A stretch of 64,000 nucleotides of DNA from Bacteroidota bacterium (GTDB lineage: Bacteria; Bacteroidota; Bacteroidia; JACPRZ01), in NCBI GenBank assembly GCA_016193485.1, contig JACPRZ010000063.1, positions 128,156-192,155 of the forward strand. The letters are read 5' to 3'. Both the position numbers and the translations under genes were made by a program. The notes under the pieces are model-generated. The model ran no database searches, was not told the DNA's origin, and saw nothing but the letters and a program-made list of their open reading frames with translations. Positions 368 to 50,684 of this stretch are shown piece after piece. Every line of letters starts with the position of its first letter. Positions within the stretch are counted from its first letter, which is position 1.

Positions 368-1615
368 TTACTCTAATGAATGAATAACCAATCCGCTTCT
401 CAGTTTCGGTTCAAACCAGGTTGTTTTCGGAGGCATAATATTTCCGGTATCGGCAATAGCGATCAGTTGGTTCATGGTTACCGGTGCAAGAGAAAAGGCA
501 ATGCGCATTTCCCTGTTGTTTACCCGCTTTTCCAGCTCAGCGGTTCCCCGTATCCCGCCAACAAAATCAATCCTCTTATCGGTACGCTGGTCTTTTATAC
601 CGAGGAGTGGGTTTAGAATTTTTTTATCAAGAATGGTTACATCCAGGACTTCTACAGGGTCAGCATCATTCCATGTTCCCGGTTTTGCAATAAGCGAAAA
701 CCATTTGCCTTCAAGATAGATACCGAAGGTATGATGGTCAGCCGGGTGCACGGATTTACCACCCATTGCTGTAATGATGAAACTTTCAGAAACCCTTTTC
801 AGAAATTCCTCCGCGGTCATCCCGTTGAGGTCTTTCACTACCCGGTTATAATCAAATATTTTAAGTTGGTCATCCGGGAAAAGCACGGCAAGGAAAAAAT
901 TATATTCTTCATTGCCGGTATGGTGAGGATTGGCATCTCTGCGCTCTTTTCCTACCAGCGCGGCAGCAGCGGTCCGGTGGTGCCCGTCAGCGACATAGGT
1001 ATAAGGTATATGCAAAAAAAGTTTCTGTATTTTTTGAATGGTAGTTTTATCCCGCACGATCCAAAACCTGTGGGCAATGGTATCATCCGCAGTAAAATCG
1101 TATTCCGGATTTTCTGATAAGATAATTTTATTGACCAGGCCATCAATTTCACCGGATGCGCGGTAAGAAAAAAATACGGGCTCATAATTCATCCCGCTCA
1201 CGCGGATATGGTTTTTCCGGTCTTCCTCCTTATCGGGACGGGTGAGTTCATGCTTCCGGATCACATTATTGAGATAATCATCCACCGAAGCGCATCCGAC
1301 AATGCCGGTCTGCCTGCGGCCATCCATTTCCTGCCGGTAAATATAAAAACATTCTTCCGGATCCTGAAAAAAAATTCCTTCCGATATCATTCTGTCCATG
1401 TTTTCCTTTCCTTTTTTATATACTTCAGGAGAATAAGGATTAAAGCCAGAAGGAAAATCAATCTCAGGTTTTATTACATGGTAGAAAGAGAGATGGTTTT
1501 CTCCGGCTTCTTCTTTTGCTTCAGAAGAGGACAATACATCATACGGCCGGGAAGCGACTAACCTGACGTTGTCTTTCAACGGACGTATTCCCCGGAATGA
1601 GTTCAGAACAGCCAT
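368..1615 (-). CDS. DUF1015 domain-containing protein
   Basis: 415-aa ORF with the YVADGHHR motif and the overall architecture typical of DUF1015. Confidence 0.7.
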   Translation of the reverse strand: MAVLNSFRGIRPLKDNVRLVASRPYDVLSSSEAKEEAGENHLSFYHVIKPEIDFPSGFNPYSPEVYKKGKENMDRMISEGIFFQDPEECFYIYRQEMDGRRQTGIVGCASVDDYLNNVIRKHELTRPDKEEDRKNHIRVSGMNYEPVFFSYRASGEIDGLVNKIILSENPEYDFTADDTIAHRFWIVRDKTTIQKIQKLFLHIPYTYVADGHHRTAAAALVGKERRDANPHHTGNEEYNFFLAVLFPDDQLKIFDYNRVVKDLNGMTAEEFLKRVSESFIITAMGGKSVHPADHHTFGIYLEGKWFSLIAKPGTWNDADPVEVLDVTILDKKILNPLLGIKDQRTDKRIDFVGGIRGTAELEKRVNNREMRIAFSLAPVTMNQLIAIADTGNIMPPKTTWFEPKLRSGLVIHSLE

Positions 1616-1617
1616 AC

Positions 1618-2205
1618 TTAGAAAGCGGTTATCCTTGCATCCGGCTGGTCAAGCACCTGTTCGATAATGACAGGGTAGTACCGGTGTTCAAGTTTATGAA
1701 TTTTTTGTGCGAGCGTTTCAGGCGTATCGCCCGGATCTACCCGGCATTTTGCCTGGAAAATAATTGAACCGTGATCGTATTTTTCATCTACATAATGAAT
1801 GGTGAGACCGCTCTCCGCATCTCCGGTTTCTATCACTGCGGTATGCACTTTCTGACCATACATACCTTTTCCCCCGTGTTTCGGTAAAAGAGCGGGATGA
1901 ATATTGATGATTTTATTGGGAAATGCCGCTATCAGCGTTTTTGGAATGAGCCATAAAAATCCAGCCAATACAATCAGGTCGGGATTTTTGATAACTAATT
2001 CATCAGTTATTATCCCGGATATGAATTCATCTCTGGCAAAGACCCTGACATCTACACCAAGATTTTTTGCGCGGGTGACTACACCTGCTTCCGGGCGGTT
2101 GCAATATACGGCTGCAATGCGCGCATTTGTTCCGCCATGAAAATACTCAATTATCCTTTGCGTATTTGTTCCGCTGCCGGAAGCGAATATGATTATTTGT
2201 TTCAT
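1618..2205 (-). CDS. purN: phosphoribosylglycinamide formyltransferase
   Basis: 195 aa with the GSGTN N-terminus, NIHPALLP...G motif and HYVDEKYDHG, all characteristic of PurN. Confidence 0.9.
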   Translation of the reverse strand: MKQIIIFASGSGTNTQRIIEYFHGGTNARIAAVYCNRPEAGVVTRAKNLGVDVRVFARDEFISGIITDELVIKNPDLIVLAGFLWLIPKTLIAAFPNKIINIHPALLPKHGGKGMYGQKVHTAVIETGDAESGLTIHYVDEKYDHGSIIFQAKCRVDPGDTPETLAQKIHKLEHRYYPVIIEQVLDQPDARITAF

Positions 2206-2225
2206 AAATTGATCTGCGGGACCCG

Positions 2226-4480
2226 TCAGAAATCGAAACTTTCTCCTGCATCTTCGACTTTATCTTTTTTTGTATAATTCCAGCAATCGGTATCAATAGT
2301 TACAGGAACAGATGGCGGTTCAAAATCCTCCTTTGAAATATTTATTGTTTTGTCATCATAAACGCTTTTCATATAGTAAGCCCAAACCGGCAGGGCAAGC
2401 GTAGCGCCCTGCCCCCAAAACATACTACGGAAATGGACGCTACGATCCTCACAACCCACCCATACACCTGATACAAGATCAGGGGTAATACCAATAAACC
2501 ATCCGTCAGAATAATTCTGAGTTGTACCGGTTTTTCCGGCTACGGGGTTGCGAATATCGTATTTAAACCTAAGGCGCACTCCGGTACCGATTCTTTTATT
2601 GACTGATTTGGAATAGACCCCATCCACTACCCCTTTTAGCATTCTGAGCATCACCCATGCAGTTTCCTCGCTCATTGCTTCGCTGGTTTTTGGTGTAAAT
2701 TCTTCCAGGATATTTCCATGGTGGTCTTCTATCTTCAATAGATATGTGGGTTCAGTCCATATTCCCTTATTGGCATAAGTACTGAATGCACCGGTCATTT
2801 CATAAACAGAAATATCAGCCACGCCAAGGCATAAAGCAGGGTACGGATCAAGATGACTGGTTATACCCATCCTGCGCGACAGGTCAATTACGGCTTGTGG
2901 TCCGAATTTACTGATTACATAAGCCGTTATCGTATTGATGGAATTAGCAAGGGCGAATTCGATTGCCAGCATTTTCCCGTCAAACTCATCATCTGAATTT
3001 TTTGGAGACCATTTTTCACCTTTTTCATCAATGAAAATGACCGGTACGTTCGGGACTTCTTCACAGGGCGACCATTTTTCCTGTATGGCAAGGGTATAAA
3101 CAAAGGGTTTAAATGCCGAACCCACCTGCCTTTTACCCTGTTTTACGTGATCATACTGAAAGTGCTTGTAATTTACCCCCCCCACCCATGCTTTGATGTG
3201 ACCGGTGTGAGGGTCCATGGAAAGAAATCCTGCCTGAAGGAAGTGTTTATAATACCGGATTGAATCCATCGGGCTCATAAAAGTATCTTTTTCACCTTCC
3301 CATGTGAATATCGTAATCGTATCGGGGGTATTGAATATTTTCAGGACAGAGTCCCTTGAAATACCGGCTTCTTTAAGAAGAGCATAGCGTTCCGACCGGT
3401 TTACGGCTTGCATCAGGATTGTGTTTATTTCCTGCTGTGTAAGATTTCTGTCAAAGGGTGCGTTTTTTGCATCCTTCCAATGCTTAAAAAATTCTTTCTG
3501 AAGGTCTTTCATGTGCCGGGTTACTGCCTGTTCGGCATACCGCTGCATCCGCGTATCAATGGTAGTATAAATTTTTAAACCGTCTTTATACAAATTATAG
3601 GGCGTTTTATTGTCGGGCTTAAGATGATTGGAGCACCACTTATCCAATTCCAGCCGGATATGCTCCCTGAAATATGTAGCGAGTCCGGCAGTATGATCTT
3701 CGGGCCGGAATACAAGTTTTACAGGCAATATTGATAAGGAATCATATTCCTGTCGGGATAAAAAAGAATACCGTTTCATCTGGCTCAGAACAACATTTCG
3801 TCTTGCTTGCGCCCGCTCCGGGTGCTTTACCGGGTTAAACCAACTGGGTGCTTTCAGAATGCCTATCAGAAGCGCTGCCTGCTCGGGTCGCAACGAATCG
3901 GGGGTAGTGCTGAAAAATATTCTCGATGCCGATTTTATACCGTAGGCGTTATTGCCGAAAGGAACGGTGTTAAAATACATGGCGATTATCTCATCTTTCG
4001 TGTAATTGCGTTCCAGTTTTACGGCCGTAAGCCATTCCCGTATTTTTGTAGCAGCGATTTGAAGAGGGGAAGAAAATTTTTCCCTGGGGAAAAGATTTTT
4101 TGCCAGTTGCTGGGTAATGGTGCTTCCCCCCTAAAGAATACCCTGGTTAATCCCTTGAAGTCCACACCGGAATGGCCGGCAAAACGGATATCCTCCGTAG
4201 CAAGAAGCGCATGTACCAGCCGTGGCGATAACTCGGAAAAGTCAGTATTCGTGCGGTTCTGGTAATAGTATTTGCCGATTATGCGGTGATCGGAGGAATA
4301 AATTTCCGAAGCCAGCTGGCTCCGGGGATTTTCGAGTTCTTTAAAATCGGGCAGCGGCCCGAAATATTCAAGCGAAACAAGCCAGATAAATCCGGCCGCC
4401 AGCAATAAAAAAATTGTAAACAGAATCCAGAAACCTGCTATGAAGGGAACGTGAGAAGACCTGTGGGATGAGGGGGACAT
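2226..4480 (-). pseudogene. mrcA: Penicillin-binding protein 1A (transglycosylase/transpeptidase), interrupted by a single-base frameshift in a C6 run at 4126..4131. This may be a sequencing error.
   Basis: Two adjacent minus-strand ORFs (4019..4627 and 2226..3980) together encode the PBP1a N-terminal TM anchor, the EDIRFxxHxGxD transglycosylase motif and the transpeptidase domain. Reading the -1 frame across the C-run restores ...GLTRVFFRGGSTITQQLAKNLFPREKF...IIAMYFNTVPFGNN, the canonical GGSTITQQ glycosyltransferase motif joining both ORFs. The likely start is MSPSS at 4480. Confidence 0.8.
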
Positions 4481-4494
4481 TTTAAAAGATAAAA

Positions 4495-4606
4495 GGACAA
4501 AGATGCTGACGATTACTGTCAGCACCATGACCAAATGCGTTATGATGCAAGGACAAAGATACTGACGATTACCGTCAGCATTATGACCAAATGCGACATG
4601 ATATAC
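4495..4606. repeat. 2 x 56-bp tandem direct repeat, each unit carrying a CTGACGATTAC(T/C)GTCAG palindrome, with a third partial copy at 4607..4660
   Basis: aaggacaaagatgctgacgattactgtcagcaccatgaccaaatgcgttatgatgc is followed by aaggacaaagatactgacgattaccgtcagcattatgaccaaatgcgacatgatat. It lies directly upstream of the PBP1a start. Confidence 0.85.
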
Positions 4607-4702
4607 TGACGGAATTTGATTTTGCAAGTTTACAAAATCAAATTCGTCAGTATAAAAGTGAGATCGTAATAGAAAGAAAGGAATTTGTTCCGGGAACCCG
4701 GA

Positions 4703-9279: not shown

Positions 9280-10350
9280 TTAATTGACCTTCGCGGAATA
9301 AACTATCGCGTCCACCTGCCGCAGGTACTCCCGCTTATCATATTTTGGAGCGAAAACGAAACCTTCAATGCAGATAAGACGCTTCTTTTGCCGGTCCGAA
9401 AGAAATAGGGCAACAAACGGTCCCCCCATAAAATCGTTCTGAACCTGCCATAAGCCGCGTATTTCAAGTGCCGGAAAACGACCGTGATGTATTTCTGTTT
9501 TTACCAGTGGGAAATCCGACATCGTCATCATATAAGAACCGGCAGATGGACCCGGTACATTTATTTTACAAACCGAATCGCGTATGGATCGCAGGCGGTT
9601 ATCGCCAGTGAAAACAGAATCGGTATAGGGAACGGAATAAATTAAAATTCCCTGGATGGTTTCTTCCGTTTCCCGCTGCAGCCAGGTAAAATTATTTGTG
9701 TTACGCATTGATTTATATCCTTTCGGAACCGTAAGCGAAATTCCCTGCGTTGATGAGATTTCCTGCATTACGGTTTTATCTGCAAGTTTTGAATAATTGG
9801 CGATCATCCTGCTTCTTTCGGATTTGCGGAAGAAATCAGTGATCAGGGAACAATTGTTTTTAAGAAAGCGGTCCATATCCTGATTTCTGCTAAGCGTAAG
9901 TTCCATTGAGACCTGTTCTTTCGACCAGGCGCCATGCCGGCTTATAAATGAATCCTTGCCGGACGTATCGCTGGAACGGATAATAAAAACATTCCTGTGG
10001 GTCTTAAATATACCTTTAAAAGCAGGGGGGGGAATTTGCACCAGCGTAAACATTGGCTCCGGCTGCGGCAAGGCAGGATGTTCTGCAGCAAGACATAAAC
10101 GCAGAGCATTGCCCGGTTTTCCAGTCCAGCCGTTTTCCGGCATCACAATAATAATTTCACCCGTTTTACCTGTGCTGCCGGGTAAAGCAATCCTGTTGCC
10201 GGAATCATTGCAGGAGGCGAACAGCGTCAGGAGTAAAATGCACAGCGATATGAGAATTTTATTAAATCCTCTCTCCCCCTCCCCCCGATAGATATCGGGG
10301 CTATCGGGATCAAAGGGGGAACAAAACCGGTTTTCATCTTTTTGCTTCAT
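9280..10350 (-). CDS. DUF4837-like lipoprotein. Its N-terminal region contains a translated copy of the CCCCGATAGATATCGGGG palindrome.
   Basis: Lipoprotein-type signal (...ILISLCILLLTLFASC). The ATG at 10350 overlaps the ispG stop in an ATGA arrangement. Residues DPDSPDIYRGEGE are encoded by the palindromic element at 10283..10311. Confidence 0.5.
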   Translation of the reverse strand: MKQKDENRFCSPFDPDSPDIYRGEGERGFNKILISLCILLLTLFASCNDSGNRIALPGSTGKTGEIIIVMPENGWTGKPGNALRLCLAAEHPALPQPEPMFTLVQIPPPAFKGIFKTHRNVFIIRSSDTSGKDSFISRHGAWSKEQVSMELTLSRNQDMDRFLKNNCSLITDFFRKSERSRMIANYSKLADKTVMQEISSTQGISLTVPKGYKSMRNTNNFTWLQRETEETIQGILIYSVPYTDSVFTGDNRLRSIRDSVCKINVPGPSAGSYMMTMSDFPLVKTEIHHGRFPALEIRGLWQVQNDFMGGPFVALFLSDRQKKRLICIEGFVFAPKYDKREYLRQVDAIVYSAKVN

Positions 10351-12314
10351 TCCTGCGGTTCTTTCCAATCGCCATGTTTTTTTATCAGTTCAATCAAAGC
10401 AGGTAACGCATCATCCTCGTTTATGTTTCTCTCAACGATTTCCTTTCCTTTATACAGCGTTATTTTTCCCGGGCCAGTTCCCACATATCCGTAATCGGCA
10501 TCGGCCATTTCACCGGGACCGTTTACAATACATCCCATCACTGCAATTTTAACGCCTTTCAGGTGCGAGGTACGCAGTTTAATTATTTGGGTTGTCTCCT
10601 GCAGGTTGAAAAGGGTTCTGCCGCAGGATGGACAAGCAATATAATCGGTTCGGGATATACGGGTTCGCGTTGCCTGTAATATTGAAAAAGAGAGGGCTGT
10701 AATATCCTGCAACGGATAATTGCCGGTTAACCAAACTCCGTCACTTAACCCGTCCAGCAATAAACCGCCAGCATCGGTTGAAGCATGCAGGCAGAAAACA
10801 TCAACGGTAATTTCCGGGTAATTCCTTTTAAGGATGACCGGTGCGCAGCATTTGTTTTCAGTCAGCAGTGCGAACATCGTTCTCATAGCCGTCAGCGGAA
10901 ATTCGCTTTTACTTACAAAAACCAAAATCGCTGATGGAACCAATTTGATTTTCCGGATAAAATCCTCATTCATATCATCAACAGAAACCGAAATAAAATT
11001 CATTTTATCAGAAATTTGCCCTGCCCACATAAAATCACCCGCTGAAAAAAGCGGGAAAACATTCTGTTTATCAAATTCTTTTATCCAGGAAGGCGCATCA
11101 ATCATAAACCCTGCACCGGAAGGGGGGGGAAAATCAATTTTATTTTTACCCAGGTAAATGTAATCGCAGGCGGCTTCCGCTGCTTTCCATTTTCTATCAT
11201 TCACTGACCATACATGTCCTGCGCTGAACAGGGATTTTTCTGTAATTTTTCCTATCCGGCTGAAATCGGCAACTACCACCGGGACATTCTTCCCACCGAT
11301 ATTTTTCACCTGGCCGCTCACCCGCTTTTCTTTACAGCGCTCACCTCCTCCTGAAATAGTTACTTTGCCGTTATCCTGCGAACCTGAATTATTCCTGCCT
11401 TCCTTACACGCAGGGAATATCGCATTTCTCCTGTTTTCGTATCTTTTTGCGAGCGCAATTGCCGCAGGGATTTCGGCTTCCGGCTCTTCCGCCAGCGAAA
11501 TCCGGATAGTATCACCGATACCTTCTTCAAGAAGTGTTCCGATACCTGCTGCAGATTTTACACGGGCGTCAAGCCCTTCGCCTGCTTCGGTAACGCCAAG
11601 GTGAACCGGATAGTTTCGGTTTGTTTTTATCATCTCATCAACAAGCAGCCGGTACGCCTGAACCATCACGATGGGATTGCTCGCTTTCATGGAAAGAACG
11701 ATGCTGTCGTATCCTTCGTTTTCGCAGATGCGCACAAATTCCATTGCCGATTCAACCATCCCTGCGGGTGTATCGCCATAGCGGTTCATGATGCGGTCGG
11801 AAAGAGAACCATGATTGGTTCCGATGCGCATGGCCGTGCCGTATTCTTTGCAGATTTTTACTAGCGGAAGGAATTTTTCACGGATGCGGTCCAGTTCAGC
11901 AGCGTATTCGGAATCGGAATATTCCCGCTGAGCGAATTTTTTCTTATCGGCAAAATTGCCGGGATTGATGCGTACTTTTTCAACAATACGGGCAGCGGCT
12001 TCTGCCGCATTTGGTGTAAAATGAATATCGGCTATCAGGGGGGCGGTAAAGCCGCGCGCATGAAGTTCTTTCCGGATGATTGCAAGGTTTTCGGCTTCTT
12101 TTATGCTTGGAGCCGTGATGCGCACATAGTCGGCACCGGCTTTTATTATCCGTATTGCCTGTTCCACCGTTCCCTTTGCATCCATTGTATCCGTAGTAGT
12201 CATTGACTGTATGCGGATGGGGTTATCACCACCTAAAGGAACATCGCCTACCGCTACGACACGTGTCCGGAAACGGTAAAGGGTTTTAGTGTCAAAGGAA
12301 ACGGTTTTTTCCAT
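10347..12314 (-). CDS. ispG: 4-hydroxy-3-methylbut-2-en-1-yl diphosphate synthase (flavodoxin), long Bacteroidota-type form with an inserted domain
   Basis: 655 aa. N-terminal TIM-barrel motifs (RITAPS, GVTEAGEG) and the C-terminal CPSCGRT 4Fe-4S motif. Confidence 0.9.
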   Translation of the reverse strand: MEKTVSFDTKTLYRFRTRVVAVGDVPLGGDNPIRIQSMTTTDTMDAKGTVEQAIRIIKAGADYVRITAPSIKEAENLAIIRKELHARGFTAPLIADIHFTPNAAEAAARIVEKVRINPGNFADKKKFAQREYSDSEYAAELDRIREKFLPLVKICKEYGTAMRIGTNHGSLSDRIMNRYGDTPAGMVESAMEFVRICENEGYDSIVLSMKASNPIVMVQAYRLLVDEMIKTNRNYPVHLGVTEAGEGLDARVKSAAGIGTLLEEGIGDTIRISLAEEPEAEIPAAIALAKRYENRRNAIFPACKEGRNNSGSQDNGKVTISGGGERCKEKRVSGQVKNIGGKNVPVVVADFSRIGKITEKSLFSAGHVWSVNDRKWKAAEAACDYIYLGKNKIDFPPPSGAGFMIDAPSWIKEFDKQNVFPLFSAGDFMWAGQISDKMNFISVSVDDMNEDFIRKIKLVPSAILVFVSKSEFPLTAMRTMFALLTENKCCAPVILKRNYPEITVDVFCLHASTDAGGLLLDGLSDGVWLTGNYPLQDITALSFSILQATRTRISRTDYIACPSCGRTLFNLQETTQIIKLRTSHLKGVKIAVMGCIVNGPGEMADADYGYVGTGPGKITLYKGKEIVERNINEDDALPALIELIKKHGDWKEPQE

Positions 12315-12359
12315 CGGGACAGGTTACAATGCACAGGGAGAATACCTGATCTGAATTTG

Positions 12360-12432
12360 TGGGCCCACAGGGATTTGAACCCCGGACCAACGGATTATGA
12401 GTCCGCTGCTCTGACCGCTGAGCTATGGGCCC
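12360..12432 (-). tRNA. tRNA with CAT anticodon, elongator Met-type, or possibly Ile2 after lysidine modification
   Basis: Reverse complement GGGCCCATAGCTCAGCGGTCAGAGCAGCGGACTCATAATCCGTTGGTCCGGGGTTCAAATCCCTGTGGGCCC folds as a cloverleaf with a 7-bp acceptor stem, D, anticodon (loop CTCATAA) and T arms, and discriminator A. G1-C72 is paired and there is no GGG/CCC anticodon stem, so it is not an initiator tRNA. Confidence 0.85.
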
Positions 12433-12656
12433 GTTTCAAATATGGTAATTTATTTATATCTTTCTTTGAGTAAATCAGAAATATCAGGAAAAAGTTTCAG
12501 ATTCCTGATATATTTTGTGCTCTTCATGTTTTTAATGTGTTTTTCTATTGCCCTTGCCTGTAATATAGTACTGCACCTGATTATGAAATAAATATTCCAG
12601 TCGTTTACTAATGAAGTAAAATGTTTTGTTACTACTCAGCATCCCAGGAATTTCAT

Positions 12657-12729
12657 GCCACAAAATCACTAAAACACAAAATTTCACTAAATTTTTTTGT
12701 GTTTTTTGGTGCTTTTGTGACTTTGTGGC
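12657..12729. repeat. 73-bp imperfect palindrome (long hairpin)
   Basis: gccacaaaatcactaaaacacaaaatttcac...gtgttttttggtgcttttgtgactttgtggc has arms that are reverse complements with a few mismatches. Confidence 0.7.
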
Positions 12730-12854
12730 AGAAATTTTTATGTTTTCGGATACCCACCTGAATAGGTTTCAGTTGTGCTTCCCACATAATATTTGTTGAG
12801 GTGTTTGCTAAATAATATGTAACAATACGCCATTTATTCAAAACGTCTTTTAAT

Positions 12855-12950
12855 GAACCCCGGACCAACGGCCCCGATAGATATCGGGGGAGTCCGCTGC
12901 TATGACCGTCCCGATGGCCCCGATGGCTATCGGGGGGACTATGGGCCCCT
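12855..12950 (-). pseudogene. Decayed second copy of the tRNA(CAT) gene, 5' two-thirds, disrupted by two insertions of CCCCGAT..ATCGGGG palindromes
   Basis: tgaaccccggaccaacgg / gagtccgctgct / tgaccg / ctatgggccc blocks are collinear and identical to the intact tRNA at 12360..12432. They are interrupted at 12872..12889 (ccccgatagatatcgggg, replacing the anticodon-loop bases) and at 12911..12937 (tcccgatggccccgatggctatcgggggg). Confidence 0.7.
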
Positions 12951-12997
12951 GGTGATAAGTAACGATTTCTACATTTGCCCCTGCAAATTTAACAACC

Positions 12998-13609
12998 TTG
13001 TGCATACCGCCCGATACCCGTAATATTATCTTCGACCTTGGTGTGGTTCTTATGGATATTCATCCTGAAAGAACCGAAAGCGCTTTCAGAACGCTCGGAT
13101 TGAAAAATTCCGGTTCCTTTCTTTTTCAACCGGGTAAAGAAAACCTCTTTACGGAGATGGAACTCGGCAGGGTTTCACCCGCTGGATTCCGCAACCAATT
13201 AAAAAAGTTTCTGCCGGCAAGTGTATTCGGTTTGGAAATTGACAGTGCGTGGAATGCAATGCTCGGAGAAATACCTGCTGAAAAGATGAAAATGCTTATT
13301 ACATTTTCCGCTCATTACCGCCTTTTTTTATTGAGCAACACCAACGAGATACACCTTAACGCAATCTCAATTTACCTGGACCAGCGATATGGCGTAAAAA
13401 ACCTTCATCATATTTTTGAGAAAGAATACTACTCCTGCCGCCTCGGTTTGCGTAAACCCGATGAAAAAATATTTAACTATGTTTTATCCGTAAACCACCT
13501 CAACCCGGCCGAGACGCTCTTTATTGACGATTCACCGGAAAATGTTGCTGCAGCGGCCAGAGTTGGAATTAAAGCGATCCGCTATTCCTTCGGGATGGTA
13601 TTTGATTAA
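12998..13609 (+). CDS. HAD-family hydrolase
   Basis: N-terminal IIFDLGVVL (DxG motif I) and C-terminal LFIDDSPENVAAA (motif IV). Confidence 0.7.
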   Translation: MCIPPDTRNIIFDLGVVLMDIHPERTESAFRTLGLKNSGSFLFQPGKENLFTEMELGRVSPAGFRNQLKKFLPASVFGLEIDSAWNAMLGEIPAEKMKMLITFSAHYRLFLLSNTNEIHLNAISIYLDQRYGVKNLHHIFEKEYYSCRLGLRKPDEKIFNYVLSVNHLNPAETLFIDDSPENVAAAARVGIKAIRYSFGMVFD

Positions 13610-17233: not shown

Positions 17234-17675
17234 ATCTCGCAAAGTCGCAAAGTCCGCAAAGTATGAGAACTGAAAATGAAATTTCAAAAATTTTAGTGAA
17301 TATCTTTCTCAAAGTTCACCGGACACCTGGACCTGGTTTGCTTGAATCTGTTTATGAAGCCGCTATATGCTATGAATTGGAAAAATTGGGAATTCCATTC
17401 AAAAGACAACAGGGCATTGAAGTGTACTATGACCATGTGAAAATGGAGTTGGGTTTCAGGGCAGATATTGTGGTTGATGGAAAAGTAATTGTAGAAATAA
17501 AATCTGTTGATACTCTTACGGATGTCCATTATAAAGTATTGCTGACTTATTTAAGATTAACTAATTTGAAATTAGGATTGCTTGTCAATTTTAATGTCAC
17601 TTTAATAAAGAATGGAATAACAAGAATCGTTAATAATCTGTAATTCTTCGCGTGCTTTGCGTCTTTGCGAGAGAA
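17234..17675 (+). mobile_element. MITE-like cassette consisting of the GxxExxY gene bounded by ~19-bp terminal inverted repeats built from CGCAAAG units
   Basis: Left end tctcgcaaagtcgcaaagtccgcaaag (17234..). Right end ctttgcgtctttgcgagag (17657..17675), whose reverse complement is ctctcgcaaagacgcaaag. A further copy, atttgcgagaca, lies at 17680. The cassette sits between fabF and rnc. Confidence 0.4.
17263..17643 (+). CDS. GxxExxY protein (PD-(D/E)xK nuclease-like)
   Basis: 126 aa with the GLLESVYEAAICYEL and DIVVDGKVIVEIKSV motifs that define the GxxExxY family. Confidence 0.8.
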   Translation: MRTENEISKILVNIFLKVHRTPGPGLLESVYEAAICYELEKLGIPFKRQQGIEVYYDHVKMELGFRADIVVDGKVIVEIKSVDTLTDVHYKVLLTYLRLTNLKLGLLVNFNVTLIKNGITRIVNNL

Positions 17676-17732: not shown

Positions 17733-18470
17733 ATGTCCGTCATCCCGCTTGGAGGTTATTTCAGGCACTTTTTCTCATCCGATAAAGATTTTACCAGAAC
17801 CATAAAGCATATTACGGGTTTTTATCCTTCCAATATTCATGTATACAAACTCGCTTTCATTCATAAATCGTCAGCCGGTGAAGCGAAGGAAGGATATTTT
17901 CATTGCAACGAGCGGCTTGAATTTTTAGGCGATGCGGTTCTGAATACCGTCATTGCGGCATTCCTTTTTAAAAAATTTCCCTATGAAAGCGAGGGATTTC
18001 TCACCCAGGCGCGGTCAAAGATTGTCAGCCGGAACAGTTTAAACGAAATCGCACGGCTTCTCGATATTGTACAGATTATCCGGTATAATCCCGGCAGCAC
18101 CGGAGACACTGAAACGATTCTTGGAAACGCATTTGAAGCCCTTATAGGAGCCATTTATATTGATAAGGGATTTGAAATGACAAAGAAATTTATTGTCAAC
18201 CGTCTTTTGGGGGAGTTTATAGACCTCGATGAAGTCCTTGCCCGCGAGACCGACTTCAAAAGCAAACTGATCAACTGGGCCCAGAAGGAAAGGAAACCCG
18301 TTGTTTTTACGGTACTTAAAGAAACCGATAAAGGACCCCGCAGGGAATTTATAATAGAAGTAAGAGTAGATAATACAGTGGCGGGAAAAGGCATCGCGTT
18401 TTCAAAAAAAGCCGCTGAACAGAAAGCATCTGAAGAAGCGTGTGCAAAGTTGAAACACTTGATGGAGTAG
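17733..18470 (+). CDS. rnc: ribonuclease III
   Basis: RNase III signature ERLEFLGDAVL and a C-terminal dsRBD. Confidence 0.9.
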   Translation: MSVIPLGGYFRHFFSSDKDFTRTIKHITGFYPSNIHVYKLAFIHKSSAGEAKEGYFHCNERLEFLGDAVLNTVIAAFLFKKFPYESEGFLTQARSKIVSRNSLNEIARLLDIVQIIRYNPGSTGDTETILGNAFEALIGAIYIDKGFEMTKKFIVNRLLGEFIDLDEVLARETDFKSKLINWAQKERKPVVFTVLKETDKGPRREFIIEVRVDNTVAGKGIAFSKKAAEQKASEEACAKLKHLME

Positions 18471-24082: not shown

Positions 24083-24270
24083 AACGATTTTTGTTTTTTG
24101 ATATAATAAACAAGAGAAGGATTAAGCGCAAATTTAATAATATTGAACTAATGACAAATTGATGATAAAACCAATAAAATGCGAATATGCGAATTCCGAT
24201 GACTATCGGGACTCATGATACGAATCCTTTACCTGCAATAATTCACAACAAGATTCGTTAGTTTATCAGG

Positions 24271-48100: not shown

Positions 48101-49346
48101 TGCATTAACTCCTATGGCAATCGGTTACGAAATCGGTGGCGAAGCAAATGTTCCGCTTGCAAGAGCAATCATTGGCGGAGTGCTGATGGCGACATTGCTT
48201 TCACTTTTTGTAGTTCCAATTTTATTTTATCTGTTAAACAAAAAATCTCAAAACAAAATGAAACTCAATCAAACATTAATCCCGATAGCTATCGGGATTC
48301 CGCTCGTGATGCTGCTTGCTTCCTGCGGAAATAAAAGAGAAGAACAACAAACTAAAACTGCAAGCAGAAATGTTCCGACAGTTTTGGTTGGCAATCCGCA
48401 AACACATCAATTCAATTCTTCCTTGCAAATCAGCGGGACAGCAAAACCAAATCAGCAGGTAAAATTATTTGCAATGACAAGCGGAATGTTACGGGAAATA
48501 AATGTTGACATCGGAGATTTTGTAAAACAGGGAGAAACACTTGCCACGCTTGATAATCCCGAACTCATACAGCAGAAAGCAAAAGCCGAAGCCGATTTGA
48601 ACGGAAAGAAATCTATCTACGACAGATTAAAAAGCGTGTATGACAAAACTCCGCAACTCACCACTATTGCAGAAGTGGAAAAAGCACAGGCAGAATTTGA
48701 AAGTGCGAAAGCAATATTGAGCGGTTTGCAATCGCAAATAAATTTCCTGCAAATACAATCACCGTTTTCAGGAGTAATTGTCAATCGTTTTTTTGACAAA
48801 GGAGCAACCATTCAGAGCGGGTTAAATAATTCCAACGCAATGCCTCTTTTTGAAATTCAGGATTTACAACCGATAAGATTGACTATTGATATTCCCGAAA
48901 CAGACGCAGTTCTCATTGACAAAAATACAAAAACAGAAATTACATTTCCTGAATTGCCCAATGGAAAATACACGGCAGCAGTTTCACGCATTGCTTATGG
49001 ATTGGATGAAAACACAAAAACAATGAAGGTGGAAATTGATTTACCGAATACAGATTTAAAAATTCGTTCAGGAATGTATGCGAAAGTTGAAATAAAACGG
49101 AGCGGACATAAAGATGTCTTGTCCGTTCCGAATGAAGCAATCGGAAATGTGAAAGGGCAATCGTTTATCTATGTAGTGAATGATGGAAAAGTGAAAAAAA
49201 TAGAAGTAAAAGCAGGAATACGAGATGATAAATTTTCCGAATTGCTGAATGTAGAAATAAAATCCACCGACAAAATTGTAGTGCAGGGTAAAGAATTTTG
49301 TAGTGATGGAGCAACCGTTCAAACAAAAGAATTAATCACTAAATAA
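45114..49346 (+). CDS. RND efflux permease (AcrB/CzcA superfamily, ~1045 aa) fused in-frame to a periplasmic adaptor subunit (MFP/HlyD-like, ~360 aa)
   Basis: N-terminal KLPVDILPNYK...YPGMPAEVME and 12-TM RND architecture. Three codons after the RND C-terminus (...YLLNKKSQNK), the frame continues through MKLNQTLIPIAIGIPLVMLLASCGNK (a lipoprotein signal) into a lipoyl/beta-barrel adaptor, with no stop codon. Confidence 0.75.
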   Translation: MLELAFKNKYLIIVAALLVAVISIVSIQKLPVDILPNYKTSAVQVLTLYPGMPAEVMEKDITSRIERWTGQSNGIEHQESKSLIGVSIVKDFFREEIDPNTSLSQVTSLAMSDLYYLPPGTVPPMVMPFDPTATTPLALLAVSSDSLSEKELYDIAYFQLRNLLGSVQGIIAPAVYGGKLRRIYMYVYPDKLQAYNLSQIDVMEAVQKNNVMIPTGDVNIGNMNYSVNANGMLPKVEDFNNIVIKMGRDARLPDGQGSPIFLKDIGYAKDASAIQTNMVHINGKRQVYIPIYKRTGANTIASVEAVKNKLAELKERLPKAINLDVILDQSTYVRNSINGLLKEGTLGLILVSLALFLFLGNFRSTFIVALSIPLSVMFAFIGLFFTGDTINSMTLGGIALAIGLLVDDSIVVLENIDKHLKQGKTSAQAAFDGAKEVAMPVLVTTITICIVFFPIIFLTGISKYLFTPLAIVVSFAMIGSRIFSMTLVPIAAAAFFKGHSNENKPESLPAGRQGFLGMFDRGVTNLTNRYALMMDKVIKFRWVILISVALLFIISIFGFRKIGTELFPKMDVGQISIDVRMESGTRIEKSEKTITEIEKFLQKEIGNDLNIIISNMGVLNDWPAAYTSNSGTQDATIAVQLKEGYKIKTADYVKKLRPKLKEQFPGVQFIFNTGGIVTTALNFGLPSPIDIQITGNDLHKSHEIAVKVRDIVQNIKGTEDVRIHQRYDHPEIKVDIDRTKAAQLGINADDVVKNTVSALNSSVNFKPSFWIDEKNGNHYFVGVTYPEIELDNPQSVENISLTGTNGKTTFLKNIAKTSLSSAPIEINHLNIQRVTDVFANVEERDIGSVAKEIENKLETLKKDLPEGYKIEMRGEIKSMKDSFGNLGLGLILAVLMVYLVIVPLLRSFKLPLIIITVIPLGLIGVTGMLLATNTYLNIQSMMGIIMMVGITVAYSNLLVDKMNNLLKAGKNLEDAIKEGVANRFRPIIMTAIVAVLALTPMAIGYEIGGEANVPLARAIIGGVLMATLLSLFVVPILFYLLNKKSQNKMKLNQTLIPIAIGIPLVMLLASCGNKREEQQTKTASRNVPTVLVGNPQTHQFNSSLQISGTAKPNQQVKLFAMTSGMLREINVDIGDFVKQGETLATLDNPELIQQKAKAEADLNGKKSIYDRLKSVYDKTPQLTTIAEVEKAQAEFESAKAILSGLQSQINFLQIQSPFSGVIVNRFFDKGATIQSGLNNSNAMPLFEIQDLQPIRLTIDIPETDAVLIDKNTKTEITFPELPNGKYTAAVSRIAYGLDENTKTMKVEIDLPNTDLKIRSGMYAKVEIKRSGHKDVLSVPNEAIGNVKGQSFIYVVNDGKVKKIEVKAGIRDDKFSELLNVEIKSTDKIVVQGKEFCSDGATVQTKELITK
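48281..48296. repeat. Perfect 16-bp palindrome CCCGATAGCTATCGGG inside the adaptor signal-peptide coding region
   Basis: It encodes IPIAIGI. It belongs to the same motif family as 10283, 12872, 12918 and 54143. Confidence 0.8.
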
Positions 49347-49358
49347 AAGGAACAGAAA

Positions 49359-50684
49359 ATGAAAAATAATTTCAGAAAAATTGTTGCCTCAATTTTATTG
49401 GTGAGTGCAATGTTCACCGCAAATGCACAATCCCCCTCCCCTTCGGGGAGGGATGGGGTGGGGCTTGTAAATCTTGAAACGGTTTTAAAATTAGCAGGAG
49501 CGAATAATTTAACCATTCAGGAATACCAGTTGAAATACCAACATGCATTAGCCGAACAAAGCAAAGCCAAAGAATGGTATCTGCCGAATATTTATTTCGG
49601 TGCAAGCACGCATTATCTGAATGGCGCAGCAATGAATACCGATGGGCAAATATTTACTGATGTGAACAGAAACAATCTCTGGACAGGGTTGGGTATCGGA
49701 GCGGAAATAGATTTTAGTAAAGGATTTTATTCTTCGCTTGCTGCAAAACAAAAAGCCAAAGCAATGCAATATCAAAGCACGACAGAAAAAAATAAAATGA
49801 TTTTACAAACGGTGCAGACCTATTTTGATTTGCAGGTAGAACAATTAAAATATTTTTTCTTGCAGCAATTAGTTAATCAATCCAACACGATTTCACAGCA
49901 AATAAAAATAAAAGTGGACGCAGGATTGCTATATCAATCCGATTATCTGCTCTCGCAAAGCAATTATAATCATTTGAAAATTTCAATGCTCCAAACAAAA
50001 ATAGAATGGCAGAAGAAATCCGCTGAACTTGTCAATCTTCTGAATTTAGAAAACAATATTAGTTTGGTAAGTGGCGACACTACTTTAATTCCGCTAAAAC
50101 TCATTGAGCAAAAAAATGACACGGCAACTTATAAAAACGGTTTTGAAAAACGAGCGGAATATTTAGGATTAAGTTCCGAACTCCAATCTTTTCAAACACT
50201 TCGCAAGACAGCCAATCAGGGTTTGTTATTGCCAAAGTTGAGAGCGGGTTTTGACAATGGAGCGTTCGGTGCATACACCACACCGCTTTACAACACCTAT
50301 CAATTCAACGCTTCGCTTGTTTGGAATTTGCCATTGGGAAGATTTACTTATAAAGGCGATTTGAAAAAATACGACACGCAAATTCTCATTCAGCAAAACG
50401 AAATAGAACAATTTAAAAATCAATTCCAGCAGGAAATTTCTATTGCCAATTCTCAACTTCAAATTGCCCAAGAACAAATGACTATTGCGAAACATGCTTT
50501 GCAATCATCCACCGAAGCATTGAACCAAAGCATAGAAAGGCAAAAGTTAGGAACGGCAAAACCTTTTGAAGTTTTTCAGATACAACAGTTTTTCTTGCAG
50601 GCACAAACCGATTATGTGAAAACGGTGATTGATTATAACAAGGTGCAATATGCTTTATGGGTTGCACTGGGAAATATGTTATAA
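49359..50684 (+). CDS. TolC-family outer-membrane efflux protein
   Basis: 441 aa with a signal peptide and two tandem OEP repeats. Residues SPSPSGRDGVG just after the signal are encoded by the GC-rich hairpin at 49431..49463. Confidence 0.75.
   Translation: MKNNFRKIVASILLVSAMFTANAQSPSPSGRDGVGLVNLETVLKLAGANNLTIQEYQLKYQHALAEQSKAKEWYLPNIYFGASTHYLNGAAMNTDGQIFTDVNRNNLWTGLGIGAEIDFSKGFYSSLAAKQKAKAMQYQSTTEKNKMILQTVQTYFDLQVEQLKYFFLQQLVNQSNTISQQIKIKVDAGLLYQSDYLLSQSNYNHLKISMLQTKIEWQKKSAELVNLLNLENNISLVSGDTTLIPLKLIEQKNDTATYKNGFEKRAEYLGLSSELQSFQTLRKTANQGLLLPKLRAGFDNGAFGAYTTPLYNTYQFNASLVWNLPLGRFTYKGDLKKYDTQILIQQNEIEQFKNQFQQEISIANSQLQIAQEQMTIAKHALQSSTEALNQSIERQKLGTAKPFEVFQIQQFFLQAQTDYVKTVIDYNKVQYALWVALGNML

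Follow-up and report, generated by a model that had tools for sequence, protein, structure and literature searches.

Short palindromic repeats are common in bacteria; how they move and how they choose their targets is largely unknown, and sites where the states before and after an arrival can be compared are rare. We describe here a family of such repeats, palindromes of 18-30 nucleotides, two members of which occupy the arms of a truncated tRNA gene copy in a deep-branching member of the Bacteroidota known from a metagenome-assembled genome (MAG; GCA_016193485.1). The DNA analysed, called the window below and numbered from its first letter, is a stretch of 64,000 nucleotides of contig JACPRZ010000063.1 (positions 128,156 to 192,155 of the forward strand). 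In its workings, the family is closest to the repetitive extragenic palindromic (REP) elements. Nesting within larger 'target palindromes' has been described for some REP families, as have copies within open reading frames (ORFs) (PMC3733652). Like REPs, bacterial interspersed mosaic elements (BIMEs) and REP doublets forming hairpins (REPINs), our elements are imperfect, GC-rich palindromes that are dispersed, mostly intergenic, non-coding, non-autonomous and sometimes nested or clustered. REP elements, which measure 20-40 nucleotides, are usually species-specific, however, whereas this family is nearly invariant across contigs whose GC content ranges from 31 to 50%. Furthermore, the ends of its consensus carry neither the GTAG nor the CGTC tetranucleotide that marks one end of the elements in the two described REP superfamilies, no such tag is consistent in the flanks, no gene for a REP-associated tyrosine transposase (RAYT), the Y1 enzyme that mobilises REPs and whose gene they often flank, was found in the window or beside 100 or more copies of the family, and its insertions delete 3-5 nucleotides of the target.

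Other mobile elements offer partial parallels. The insertion sequences (IS) of the IS200/IS605 group and the palindrome-associated transposable elements (PATEs) bear subterminal hairpins of about 20 nucleotides, GC-footed and imperfect, which are recognised as single-stranded DNA by a Y1 HUH transposase; IS200/IS605 elements insert into single-stranded targets without duplication, precisely beside a fixed target of 4-5 nucleotides. In the present case neither a TnpA or TnpB gene nor a longer element body was seen, and the target varies and is partly deleted. The family also differs from miniature inverted-repeat transposable elements (MITEs), which are mobilised by DDE transposases and have terminal inverted repeats and a target-site duplication, in that comparisons among its copies show a loss of 3-5 nucleotides and no duplication. 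The Rickettsia palindromic elements (RPEs) measure roughly 100-150 bp and are known only from Rickettsia. They are selfish, occur inside genes, and one of them lies in a tmRNA gene (PMC1458961). A comparable copy in the window is found inside the 5' end of a DUF4837 ORF, in frame within a 27-residue extension; our elements, however, are 18-30 nucleotides long and come from Bacteroidota, and while RPE-bearing genes stay functional, the tRNA copies hit here are already truncated. The GC clusters of fungal mitochondria (yeast GC42, for instance) are short GC-rich hairpins in AT-rich non-coding DNA, polymorphic among strains, which merge and nest (PMC4478555). These are organellar rather than bacterial, and GC42 was reported with a duplicated AG target, in contrast to the 3-5 nucleotides lost here. 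In the searchable literature we found neither the cross-lineage conservation, nor the loop-replacement signature, nor the recurrence in tRNA fragments described below; a literature search for the family sequence returned no paper, and Rfam holds no family for it.

The locus is a divergent intergenic region of 565 nucleotides, which separates an intact tRNA gene from a HAD-hydrolase gene. To the left, on the minus strand, the tRNA gene is followed 45 nucleotides downstream by ispG (10347-12314, Pfam GcpE); to the right, on the plus strand, come the HAD-hydrolase gene (12998-13609, Pfam) and then recJ. The features on which the argument turns are the following:

12360..12432, minus strand: intact tRNA gene, anticodon CAT (ARAGORN and the Rfam tRNA model).
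12854..12948, minus strand: 3'-truncated tRNA remnant of 95 nucleotides, covering tRNA positions 1-57 (BLAST blocks, direct repeats D4, D5 and D12, gapped alignment).
12872..12889, no strand assigned: 18-nucleotide palindrome CCCCGATAGATATCGGGG, in place of ATAAT (sequence and alignment).
12909..12938, plus strand: 30-nucleotide compound ('stuttered') palindrome TCCCGATGGCCCCGATGGCTATCGGGGGGA, in place of CTCAG (sequence and alignment).
10280..10309, minus strand: sister 30-nucleotide compound palindrome just after the ispG stop codon, 29/30 identical to the family consensus.

In the whole window ARAGORN reports a single tRNA, a minus-strand gene with anticodon CAT at 12359-12432, and the Rfam tRNA model scores 12360-12432 at 74.3 bits, the one match in the window above gathering thresholds. 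An initial annotation, made by inspection of the DNA, had placed the intact gene at the latter coordinates, and both programs bear it out. Among 5,423 E. coli genomes, the top matches to this gene (81-82% identity over 62 nucleotides) are annotated as tRNA-Ile; because these are its nearest relatives in E. coli, the gene most likely encodes tRNA-Ile2, of the lysidine type, rather than tRNA-Met.

A BLAST search of the window with the intact tRNA returns three collinear blocks on the minus strand: positions 1-10 of the tRNA at 12939-12948 (10/10), positions 16-34 at 12890-12908 (18/19, E = 0.003) and positions 40-57 at 12854-12871 (18/18, E = 5e-5). Together, the blocks are identical to the intact gene at 47 of 48 nucleotides, a similarity that lies far beyond chance. 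The first nucleotide of the tRNA is also the first of the homology, which breaks off after TTCA in the T loop; the last 16 nucleotides of the tRNA, that is, the 3' side of the T stem and the acceptor strand, are gone, and the bases that come next (TTAAAAGACG) are unrelated. A spacer of 421 nucleotides leads from the remnant to the intact tRNA. The remnant is not called by ARAGORN and has no Rfam tRNA match even at E <= 10; ARAGORN still passes over it after computational excision of the palindromes. It is thus a non-functional, 3'-truncated relic of a tRNA-Ile2(CAU) gene. In all this the initial annotation had been right about the essentials: it had proposed a second copy upstream on the same strand, which holds in the tRNA's own minus orientation, had expected gene finders to score it as a pseudogene or miss it, and had called for the alignment just given. 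Its coordinates, 12855..12950, are one or two nucleotides off. It also spoke of a tandem copy; a dead copy does lie upstream of the intact gene, and tandem duplication is one possible origin of it among others.

The three blocks are separated by the two palindromes. The 18-mer stands in the place of ATAAT, positions 35-39 of the tRNA (12394-12398 in the intact gene), which form the 3' part of the anticodon loop and the first base of the stem; the 30-mer takes the place of CTCAG, positions 11-15 (12418-12422 in the intact gene), in the D stem and loop. The interruptions of the anticodon loop and D-arm noticed earlier are therefore where they were said to be, but they are replacements of five nucleotides and not pure insertions. 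It had also been claimed that this locus directly shows the element inserting into genes and inactivating them. As to inactivation, that conclusion is not supported by the data, because the missing 3' end would by itself suffice to kill the copy.

Both palindromes belong to a dispersed family, as the initial annotation had supposed. The sequence CCCGATNNNNATCGGG has four exact copies in the window (CCCGATN4ATCGGG), against 0.00 expected, and when up to three mismatches are tolerated, 11 matches are found against 2.6 expected. The family core is YCCCGAT-N4-ATCGGGR in the 18-nucleotide form, while the 30-nucleotide form has a duplicated left arm; the 30-mer of the D-arm can be written TCCCGATGG-CCCCGATGGCTATCGGGG-GGA, with the left arm doubled. 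The 18-mer of the anticodon site is identical to 10283-10300 (18/18), and the 30-mer of the D-arm matches the reverse complement of 10280-10309 at 27 of 30 positions. More family members lie at 24194, 45022, 48279 and 54142, and other families of GC-rich hairpins are also present in the window. Around the sister copy at 10280-10309, the arms TCCCCCT/AGGGGGA form an outer hairpin that has the copy in its loop; the copy lies within the DUF4837 ORF, at its 5' end.

Beyond the window, we scanned JGI metagenome contigs with the compound pattern CCCGATNGCCCCGATNNNTATCGGGG and obtained 91 stretches, from contigs of 31-50% GC, with 94 copies whose flanks represent about 65 distinct contexts. The free positions of the pattern proved almost invariant, and the 94 copies give the consensus (A)TCCCGATAGCCCCGATAGCTATCGGGGGGA(T), which the window 30-mers match at 28/30 (12909-12938) and 29/30 (10280-10309). 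Several of these contigs can be placed in the Bacteroidota because they encode T9SS sorting domains and SusC-type receptor domains. None of the contigs is close to the organism of the window, the best protein match being 50% identical. Element-bearing DNA has about 0.6-0.7 copies in every 10 kb, compared with one copy in the 694 kb that cover 80 other Bacteroidota ispG loci. Neither the 30-mer nor a D-arm-plus-palindrome pattern occurs in 2.9 million viral contigs.

Are the members of this family insertions? A metagenome locus (L127, positions 1118-4645) settles the point, since it holds four paralogous repeats of about 350 nucleotides with inverted ends (GTCCCTGCGGATATA...TATATCCGCAGGGAC), alternating with short AT-rich segments, in which two internal sites either have or lack a CCCGAT palindrome. 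At the first site, ATT is replaced by CCCCGATAGCTATCGGGG or by the compound form; at the second, a GGATT/AATCC hairpin has its loop replaced by the 30-mer. Paralogous sites with and without the element thus coexist, and the family inserts. In the comparisons available to us (between filled and empty sites or between remnants and intact genes), no duplication of the target was seen. The target nucleotides lost are 5 and 5 in the window, 4 and 4 at L122, 4 and 5 at L169, 3 at L116, and 3 plus about 3-4 at L127 (L122, L169 and L116 are the tRNA loci described below).

The hairpin around the second site of L127 is no isolated case. We tested the complementarity between left and right flanks on 107 non-redundant copies. 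In each of 100 permutations, the real flanks had the stronger pairing, also after trimming 3 or 5 nucleotides next to the element; measured against controls from the same loci, which are mostly coding while the elements are mostly intergenic, element flanks reach -7.0 rather than -4.9 kcal/mol (Wilcoxon p = 2e-4). An excess of complementarity around the insertions is thus observed.

Three other loci repeat the architecture of the window, and the insertions that the initial annotation had suggested looking for in other tandem tRNA arrays of the genome were thereby found, in other genomes and beside tRNA-Lys and tRNA-Phe genes. At L169, an intact tRNA-Phe gene has a remnant 43 nucleotides upstream on the same strand, which reads GGTACCTTAGCTC(TCCCGATAATTATCGGGA)GGTAGAGCAACGGACTGA(TCCCGATAGCTATCGGGA)CGTGTGTCCC, with the palindromes in parentheses; they replace AGTT in the D loop and AAATC in the anticodon loop, the same two loops as in the window remnant, and here too the copy is truncated in the T arm and the remainder of the tRNA is gone. 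At L122, an intact tRNA-Lys gene has two decayed copies upstream in which the AGTT of the D loop has given way to the 30-mer in one copy and to a simple palindrome in the other, and downstream are two 3' fragments, each with a related palindrome before it at the T loop. At L116 (5140-5640, minus strand), a cassette of about 400 nucleotides encoding a 96-residue GIY-YIG nuclease (Pfam E = 1.7e-14) sits in the anticodon loop of a tRNA-Phe gene and supplies a new 3' half, so that the gene is regenerated; the old 3' fragment has been displaced and carries the 30-mer in place of the GTT of its T loop. This cassette looks like a small selfish element that targets tRNA genes. Such fragments accompany four of the six tRNA genes in element-bearing DNA and none of the four in element-free loci. 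Every palindrome-bearing tRNA sequence that we found is a truncated fragment beside an intact gene, and excising the palindromes computationally and running ARAGORN again revealed no full-length tRNA interrupted by palindromes alone.

The fragments themselves invite comparison with the scars left at attachment (att) sites. Elements that integrate at tRNA genes normally carry the 3' portion of that tRNA. A truncated direct repeat of a tRNA beside the intact gene, with its boundary in the T loop, is reminiscent of such a scar, and L116 is a textbook case, with a 3' repeat and the GIY-YIG cassette between the repeats. In the window, by contrast, it is the 5' portion that is repeated, and the 421-nucleotide spacer encodes nothing recognisable. 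The comparison concerns the origin of the fragments and not that of the palindromes.

Which process would place the same palindrome in the loops of tRNA fragments in distant organisms? We consider it probable that the family is a non-autonomous, REP-like element that lands in the single-stranded loops of hairpins, and that hits in tRNA fragments are those that survive. Each of the two loops of the window remnant has lost five nucleotides and gained one family member. The element would prefer the single-stranded loop of an existing hairpin and swap 3-5 loop nucleotides for itself without duplicating the target. The arms of tRNAs would then be prime targets; insertion into a functional tRNA gene would kill the cell and be removed by purifying selection, and hits would persist solely in the redundant fragments that gather beside tRNA genes, which are hot spots for the insertion of foreign DNA. 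Mobilisation would occur in trans on single-stranded DNA, and our favoured candidate for the enzyme would be a HUH/Y1 transposase.

The family offers what is usually missing: beside each tRNA fragment that was hit stands an intact gene showing the sequence as it was beforehand. The signature is consistent: 3-5 loop nucleotides lost and no target duplication. The near-perfect conservation across distant Bacteroidota points to a conserved partner enzyme, which could be found through phylogenetic co-occurrence. In these organisms, gene fragments accumulate to the left and right of tRNA genes. In practice, the elements break short-read assemblies, extend or invade the 5' ends of ORFs, and can mislead gene calling and tRNA annotation in MAGs.

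Several points weigh against this reading. No transposase or other mobilising enzyme was found: the window ORFs include no transposase, integrase or RAYT-like gene, and the 103 ORFs within 500 nucleotides of copies elsewhere show no recurrent family and no RAYT. Small target deletions are not the products of known Y1/HUH or DDE transposition. Strongly pairing flanks surround 28 of the 107 copies, so that loop residence is a tendency and not a rule, and the coding bias of the same-locus controls has been mentioned. The 91 loci were found via the element itself, and counts drawn from them are biased by ascertainment. Over the four tRNA loci together, 148 of the 149 nucleotides retained in blocks agree with the intact genes; the fragments must therefore be very young, which implies a very high local insertion rate, or be otherwise maintained, by gene conversion or function. 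Finally, the source genome was examined over 64 kb and has no close relative, so no empty ancestral site was found at this locus: the closest IspG outside the MAG is 61% identical (among 5.8 billion proteins) and the closest DUF4837 protein 45%. In 80 ispG loci of GTDB species representatives (at most 59% identical), ispG has no adjoining tRNA and no DUF4837 gene nearby.

Further readings at the level of the sequence were examined and set aside. A DDE-type 'minimal MITE' or abutted IS ends were rejected for want of target duplication, and P-nucleotide excision footprints because the sequence is conserved and not derived from the flanks; ten nucleotides that the D-arm insert shares with the start of ispG (GTCCCGATGG) are a match at chance level.

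The apparent youth of the fragments bears on the main alternative, in which the palindromes arose in the same event as the truncated copy, for example during templated or error-prone repair of a break that a homing-type nuclease or a recombinase made in the tRNA gene, the repair both duplicating part of the gene and filling its loops with a templated palindrome. Fragments that look so young (148/149 nucleotides) nevertheless carry up to two palindromes each, and all the palindrome-bearing tRNA sequences are truncated as well, as a coupled origin would have it. The replaced positions are similar across loci (14-17 in the D loop, 35-40 in the anticodon loop, and the T loop), one such locus, L116, holds a nuclease cassette, and an element conserved at 28-29 of 30 nucleotides between organisms whose best shared protein is 50% identical would fit a conserved template or enzyme. 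On the other hand, palindromes also occur at many sites without similarity to tRNA, as differences between filled and empty sites, and can thus arrive alone; fragment boundaries and spacer lengths vary widely (from 11 to 421 nucleotides); and the spacer of the window holds no nuclease gene. We therefore hold this alternative to be unlikely. The same low standing applies to a more specific version, a structure-guided process in which a conserved enzyme or template swaps 3-5 loop nucleotides for a fixed palindrome of 18-30 nucleotides and is coupled, at tRNA genes, to partial duplication. Were it true, the intact gene would be regenerated and a 'loop-filled' fragment left behind, and the family would be a new mobile or repair-associated element with its own target logic, not an ordinary REP.

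One may also ask whether any special process is needed. An old tandem duplicate might have lost its 3' end and been hit twice by a common repeat with no target preference, its recurrence elsewhere reflecting coincidence and ascertainment. Pseudo-tRNAs beside tRNA genes are indeed common, loops make up a large share of the 57 nucleotides, such that two loop hits are not improbable (we estimate about 0.2), and the element-bearing loci were selected for the element. However, at about 0.6 copies per 10 kb, two copies within 95 nucleotides amount to a several hundred-fold excess. In four independent loci, with three tRNA species, the insertions strike the same loops, and the simple palindromes of L169 and of the second unit of L122 fall outside the selection made by the search pattern. 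An old relic should also carry substitutions, while 47 of 48 nucleotides are unchanged. Neutral decay is thus a quite improbable account of the remnant, and the insertion of a loop-seeking element is the reading that we retain.

The remaining features of the intergenic region bear on its transcription and on the integrity of the assembly, and are listed here:

12984..12991, minus strand: TAAATTTG, a match to the Bacteroidota -7 motif TAnnTTTG, 35 nucleotides upstream of the remnant 5' end (motif scan).
12970..12977, plus strand: TACATTTG, a divergent, back-to-back promoter-like motif, 21 nucleotides before the HAD start at 12998 (motif scan).
12765..12766, no strand assigned: 57-nucleotide insertion/deletion polymorphism, with 57 extra nucleotides in three metagenome assemblies.
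12649..12737, minus strand: AT-rich imperfect palindrome of 89 nucleotides (inverted repeat I1, direct repeats D2, folds).
12476..12517, no strand assigned: small hairpin with arms ATATCAGGAA / TTCCTGATAT and an 11-nucleotide loop (inverted repeat I9).

The motif TAnnTTTG is depleted in the window overall (46 matches against 64 expected from shuffles) but three-fold enriched between genes, where 10 of the 14 matches point at a start codon 5-57 nucleotides away. Because it is concentrated just upstream of start codons, it is usable as a promoter predictor in this genome. On the minus strand of the intergenic region, its sole occurrence precedes the remnant, and none is found before the intact tRNA. 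L169 is similar, in that the remnant, and not the intact gene, has a promoter and a leader resembling those of the undisturbed tRNA-Phe of L116. From the promoter motif in front of the remnant and the parallel at L169, we infer that the remnant marks the original start of the gene. The working tRNA is then probably read through the remnant, the spacer and the long hairpin, and an insertion of DNA into the tRNA gene fits the locus at least as well as tandem duplication followed by deletion. The spacer ORFs have no Pfam match at E <= 1.

A transcript that begins with the remnant might suggest that the whole module is functional, either as a selected leader of the tRNA-ispG transcript that might control processing or stability, or as a decoy presented to tRNA-gene-targeting enzymes or mobile elements. 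The position of the only promoter motif on that strand, the probable read-through, the native-looking promoter and leader of the L169 remnant, the recurrence of the architecture and the perfect conservation of the retained blocks would all be expected of such a module. Nevertheless, the extent of the fragment, the spacer and the copy number differ at every locus, the palindromes are insertions that are also present at unrelated sites, and the RNA fold of the remnant is no better than that of shuffled sequence (z = -1.1). A selected leader or decoy is accordingly very unlikely in our estimation.

Turning to the assembly, look-ups of the exact sequences of IspG, RecJ and a spurious 51-residue ORF lying over the remnant retrieved Logan contigs from independent runs. 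Three of them (SRR12113421, SRR12113385 and SRR12113425) equal the window base for base from 12766 rightwards, the whole remnant included, and continue beyond the remnant and both palindromes into the HAD gene and recJ. All three stop at 12743, six nucleotides from the foot of the long hairpin, and contigs coming from ispG reach no further than 12397 or 12413, within the intact tRNA. Both hairpins, and the rest of the stretch 12414-12742, are thus represented in the MAG assembly only; look-ups of four small spacer ORFs and of the long-form HAD protein, made for independent support of this stretch, gave no matches. The 57 extra nucleotides in the three assemblies indicate that the spacer is polymorphic in the population. 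This additional segment (TTACAATG...TTCCGGT; L084, L085 and L087) looks like part of a diverged tandem duplication, of about 57 nucleotides, of neighbouring sequence. A chimeric join of repeats, which the initial annotation had itself named as a way in which it could fail, is barely conceivable: the window does come from a MAG, short-read contigs do break on both sides of the spacer, the 57-nucleotide difference lies at 12765/12766 and 12414-12742 has the MAG as its one source, but three assemblies from different runs hold an identical remnant with both palindromes, joined to HAD and recJ, and the shared tRNA blocks of 10-19 nucleotides are too short to mislead an assembler.

The spacer holds two other hairpins. 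The longer one had been annotated as a 73-bp palindrome at 12657..12729; it is real and extends further, to 12649-12737, with arms of 43 nucleotides that are 74% complementary. It contains four CACWAAA heptads, spaced 8-10 nucleotides apart, and four inverted counterparts, and it folds at -34.2 kcal/mol on the minus strand (z = -7.6) and -27.8 on the plus strand (z = -5.8). Two A-C mismatches of the plus strand become G-U pairs on the minus strand, which is weak evidence for a role at the RNA level in the tRNA leader, for instance as a substrate of RNase III, whose gene, rnc, is at 17733-18470. In Rfam the hairpin has nothing but sub-threshold, spurious matches to eukaryotic miRNAs; it has no second copy in the window, and a BLAST of the spacer and hairpin against all fetched loci gives low-complexity A/T matches only. 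A terminator scan does not report it as a canonical intrinsic terminator, its stem having about 30% G+C, and its T-rich tail is on the plus strand only, where no upstream gene needs terminating; its resemblance to DnaA boxes or CRP-type sites is weak. Of the roles floated for it at first (non-coding RNA, terminator or second element type), a canonical terminator, an Rfam family and an element repeated in the window can be struck off. An RNA hairpin in the leader is a tentative assignment; a relic of inserted DNA is possible, if somewhat doubtful; a protein-binding or cruciform DNA site is more doubtful again; and a terminator of any sort is improbable. The smaller hairpin, first placed at 12474..12516, does have perfect 10-nucleotide arms (12481-12490 and 12502-12511). 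It lies 45-85 nucleotides upstream of the intact tRNA and its fold is modest (z = -3.9 on the plus strand and -3.2 on the minus strand).

The sister copy at 10280-10309 may have a consequence for the gene it enters. Within 10255-10350 on the minus strand, the ORF for the DUF4837 lipoprotein opens with an ATG at 10350-10348 that overlaps the ispG stop codon (ATGA), and its predicted product begins with a 27-residue N-terminal extension, MKQKDENRFCSPFDPDSPDIYRGEGERG, encoded by the 30-nucleotide palindrome and its outer hairpin. The extension is absent from all 22 homologues compared, 19 of which begin at the residue that follows it; there is no canonical start codon between the element and the DUF4837 signal peptide.

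The family sequence has features of its own. Positions 2-12 of many tRNAs (in the adjacent gene, for example, GCCCATAGCTC) are similar to the left half of the palindrome (CCCGATAGCT), with a self-complementary AGCT at the centre (12872-12889 and the family consensus). One idea suggested by this resemblance is that the family may have arisen by palindromisation of a tRNA 5' end.

GC-rich palindromes of the window also lie in and around coding sequences. Two copies of a composite hairpin of about 80 nucleotides (ACACACCCCCCTAACCCCCCTCT...AGAGGGGATTTAGGGGTGTGT; 42463-42545 and 42966-43080; fold z of about -7) flank the gene for a DUF559 (Vsr-like) endonuclease at 42593-43024, and the second copy has an additional nested hairpin, AATTCCCTGCTGAAAAGCGGGGTAGGGAATT, replacing four nucleotides (AACA). 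Three perfect palindromes are read in frame: CCTGCCTGCCGGCAGGCAGG at 46634-46653 in an RND pump, where it encodes LPAGRQG; ATCCCGATAGCTATCGGGAT at 48279-48298 in the signal peptide of a membrane-fusion lipoprotein (IPIAIGI); and CCCTCCCCTTCGGGGAGGG at 49434-49452, just past the signal peptide of a TolC-like protein (SPSPSGRDG). The RND transporter and the membrane-fusion lipoprotein, which has its own ATG at 48258 and a perfect lipobox, form a single ORF of 1410 codons (45114-49346) with no stop between them.

At the tRNA-Phe locus L169, the region downstream of the gene (2500-2990, minus strand) consists of four tandem units of about 120 nucleotides, each ending in a degenerate 3' fragment of a tRNA, and the last unit carries the 30-mer. 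In a related contig, L098 (1-120 and 2620-2720), the tRNA and the last unit are separated by some 2.5 kb of other DNA. This tRNA locus is a rearrangement hot spot.

Elsewhere in the window, the gene for a class A penicillin-binding protein (2226-4627, minus strand) is split into two ORFs, its transglycosylase domain being interrupted by a frame change near 4110-4140, where six G follow one another and about nine residues are lacking ahead of the GGSTITQQ motif; it is either a pseudogene or an assembly error. A small gene for a PD-(D/E)XK nuclease (PDDEXK_3, 17263-17643) stands alone between fabF and rnc and, like those for DUF559 and GIY-YIG proteins, represents the type of small nuclease cassette that seems to wedge itself between housekeeping genes.

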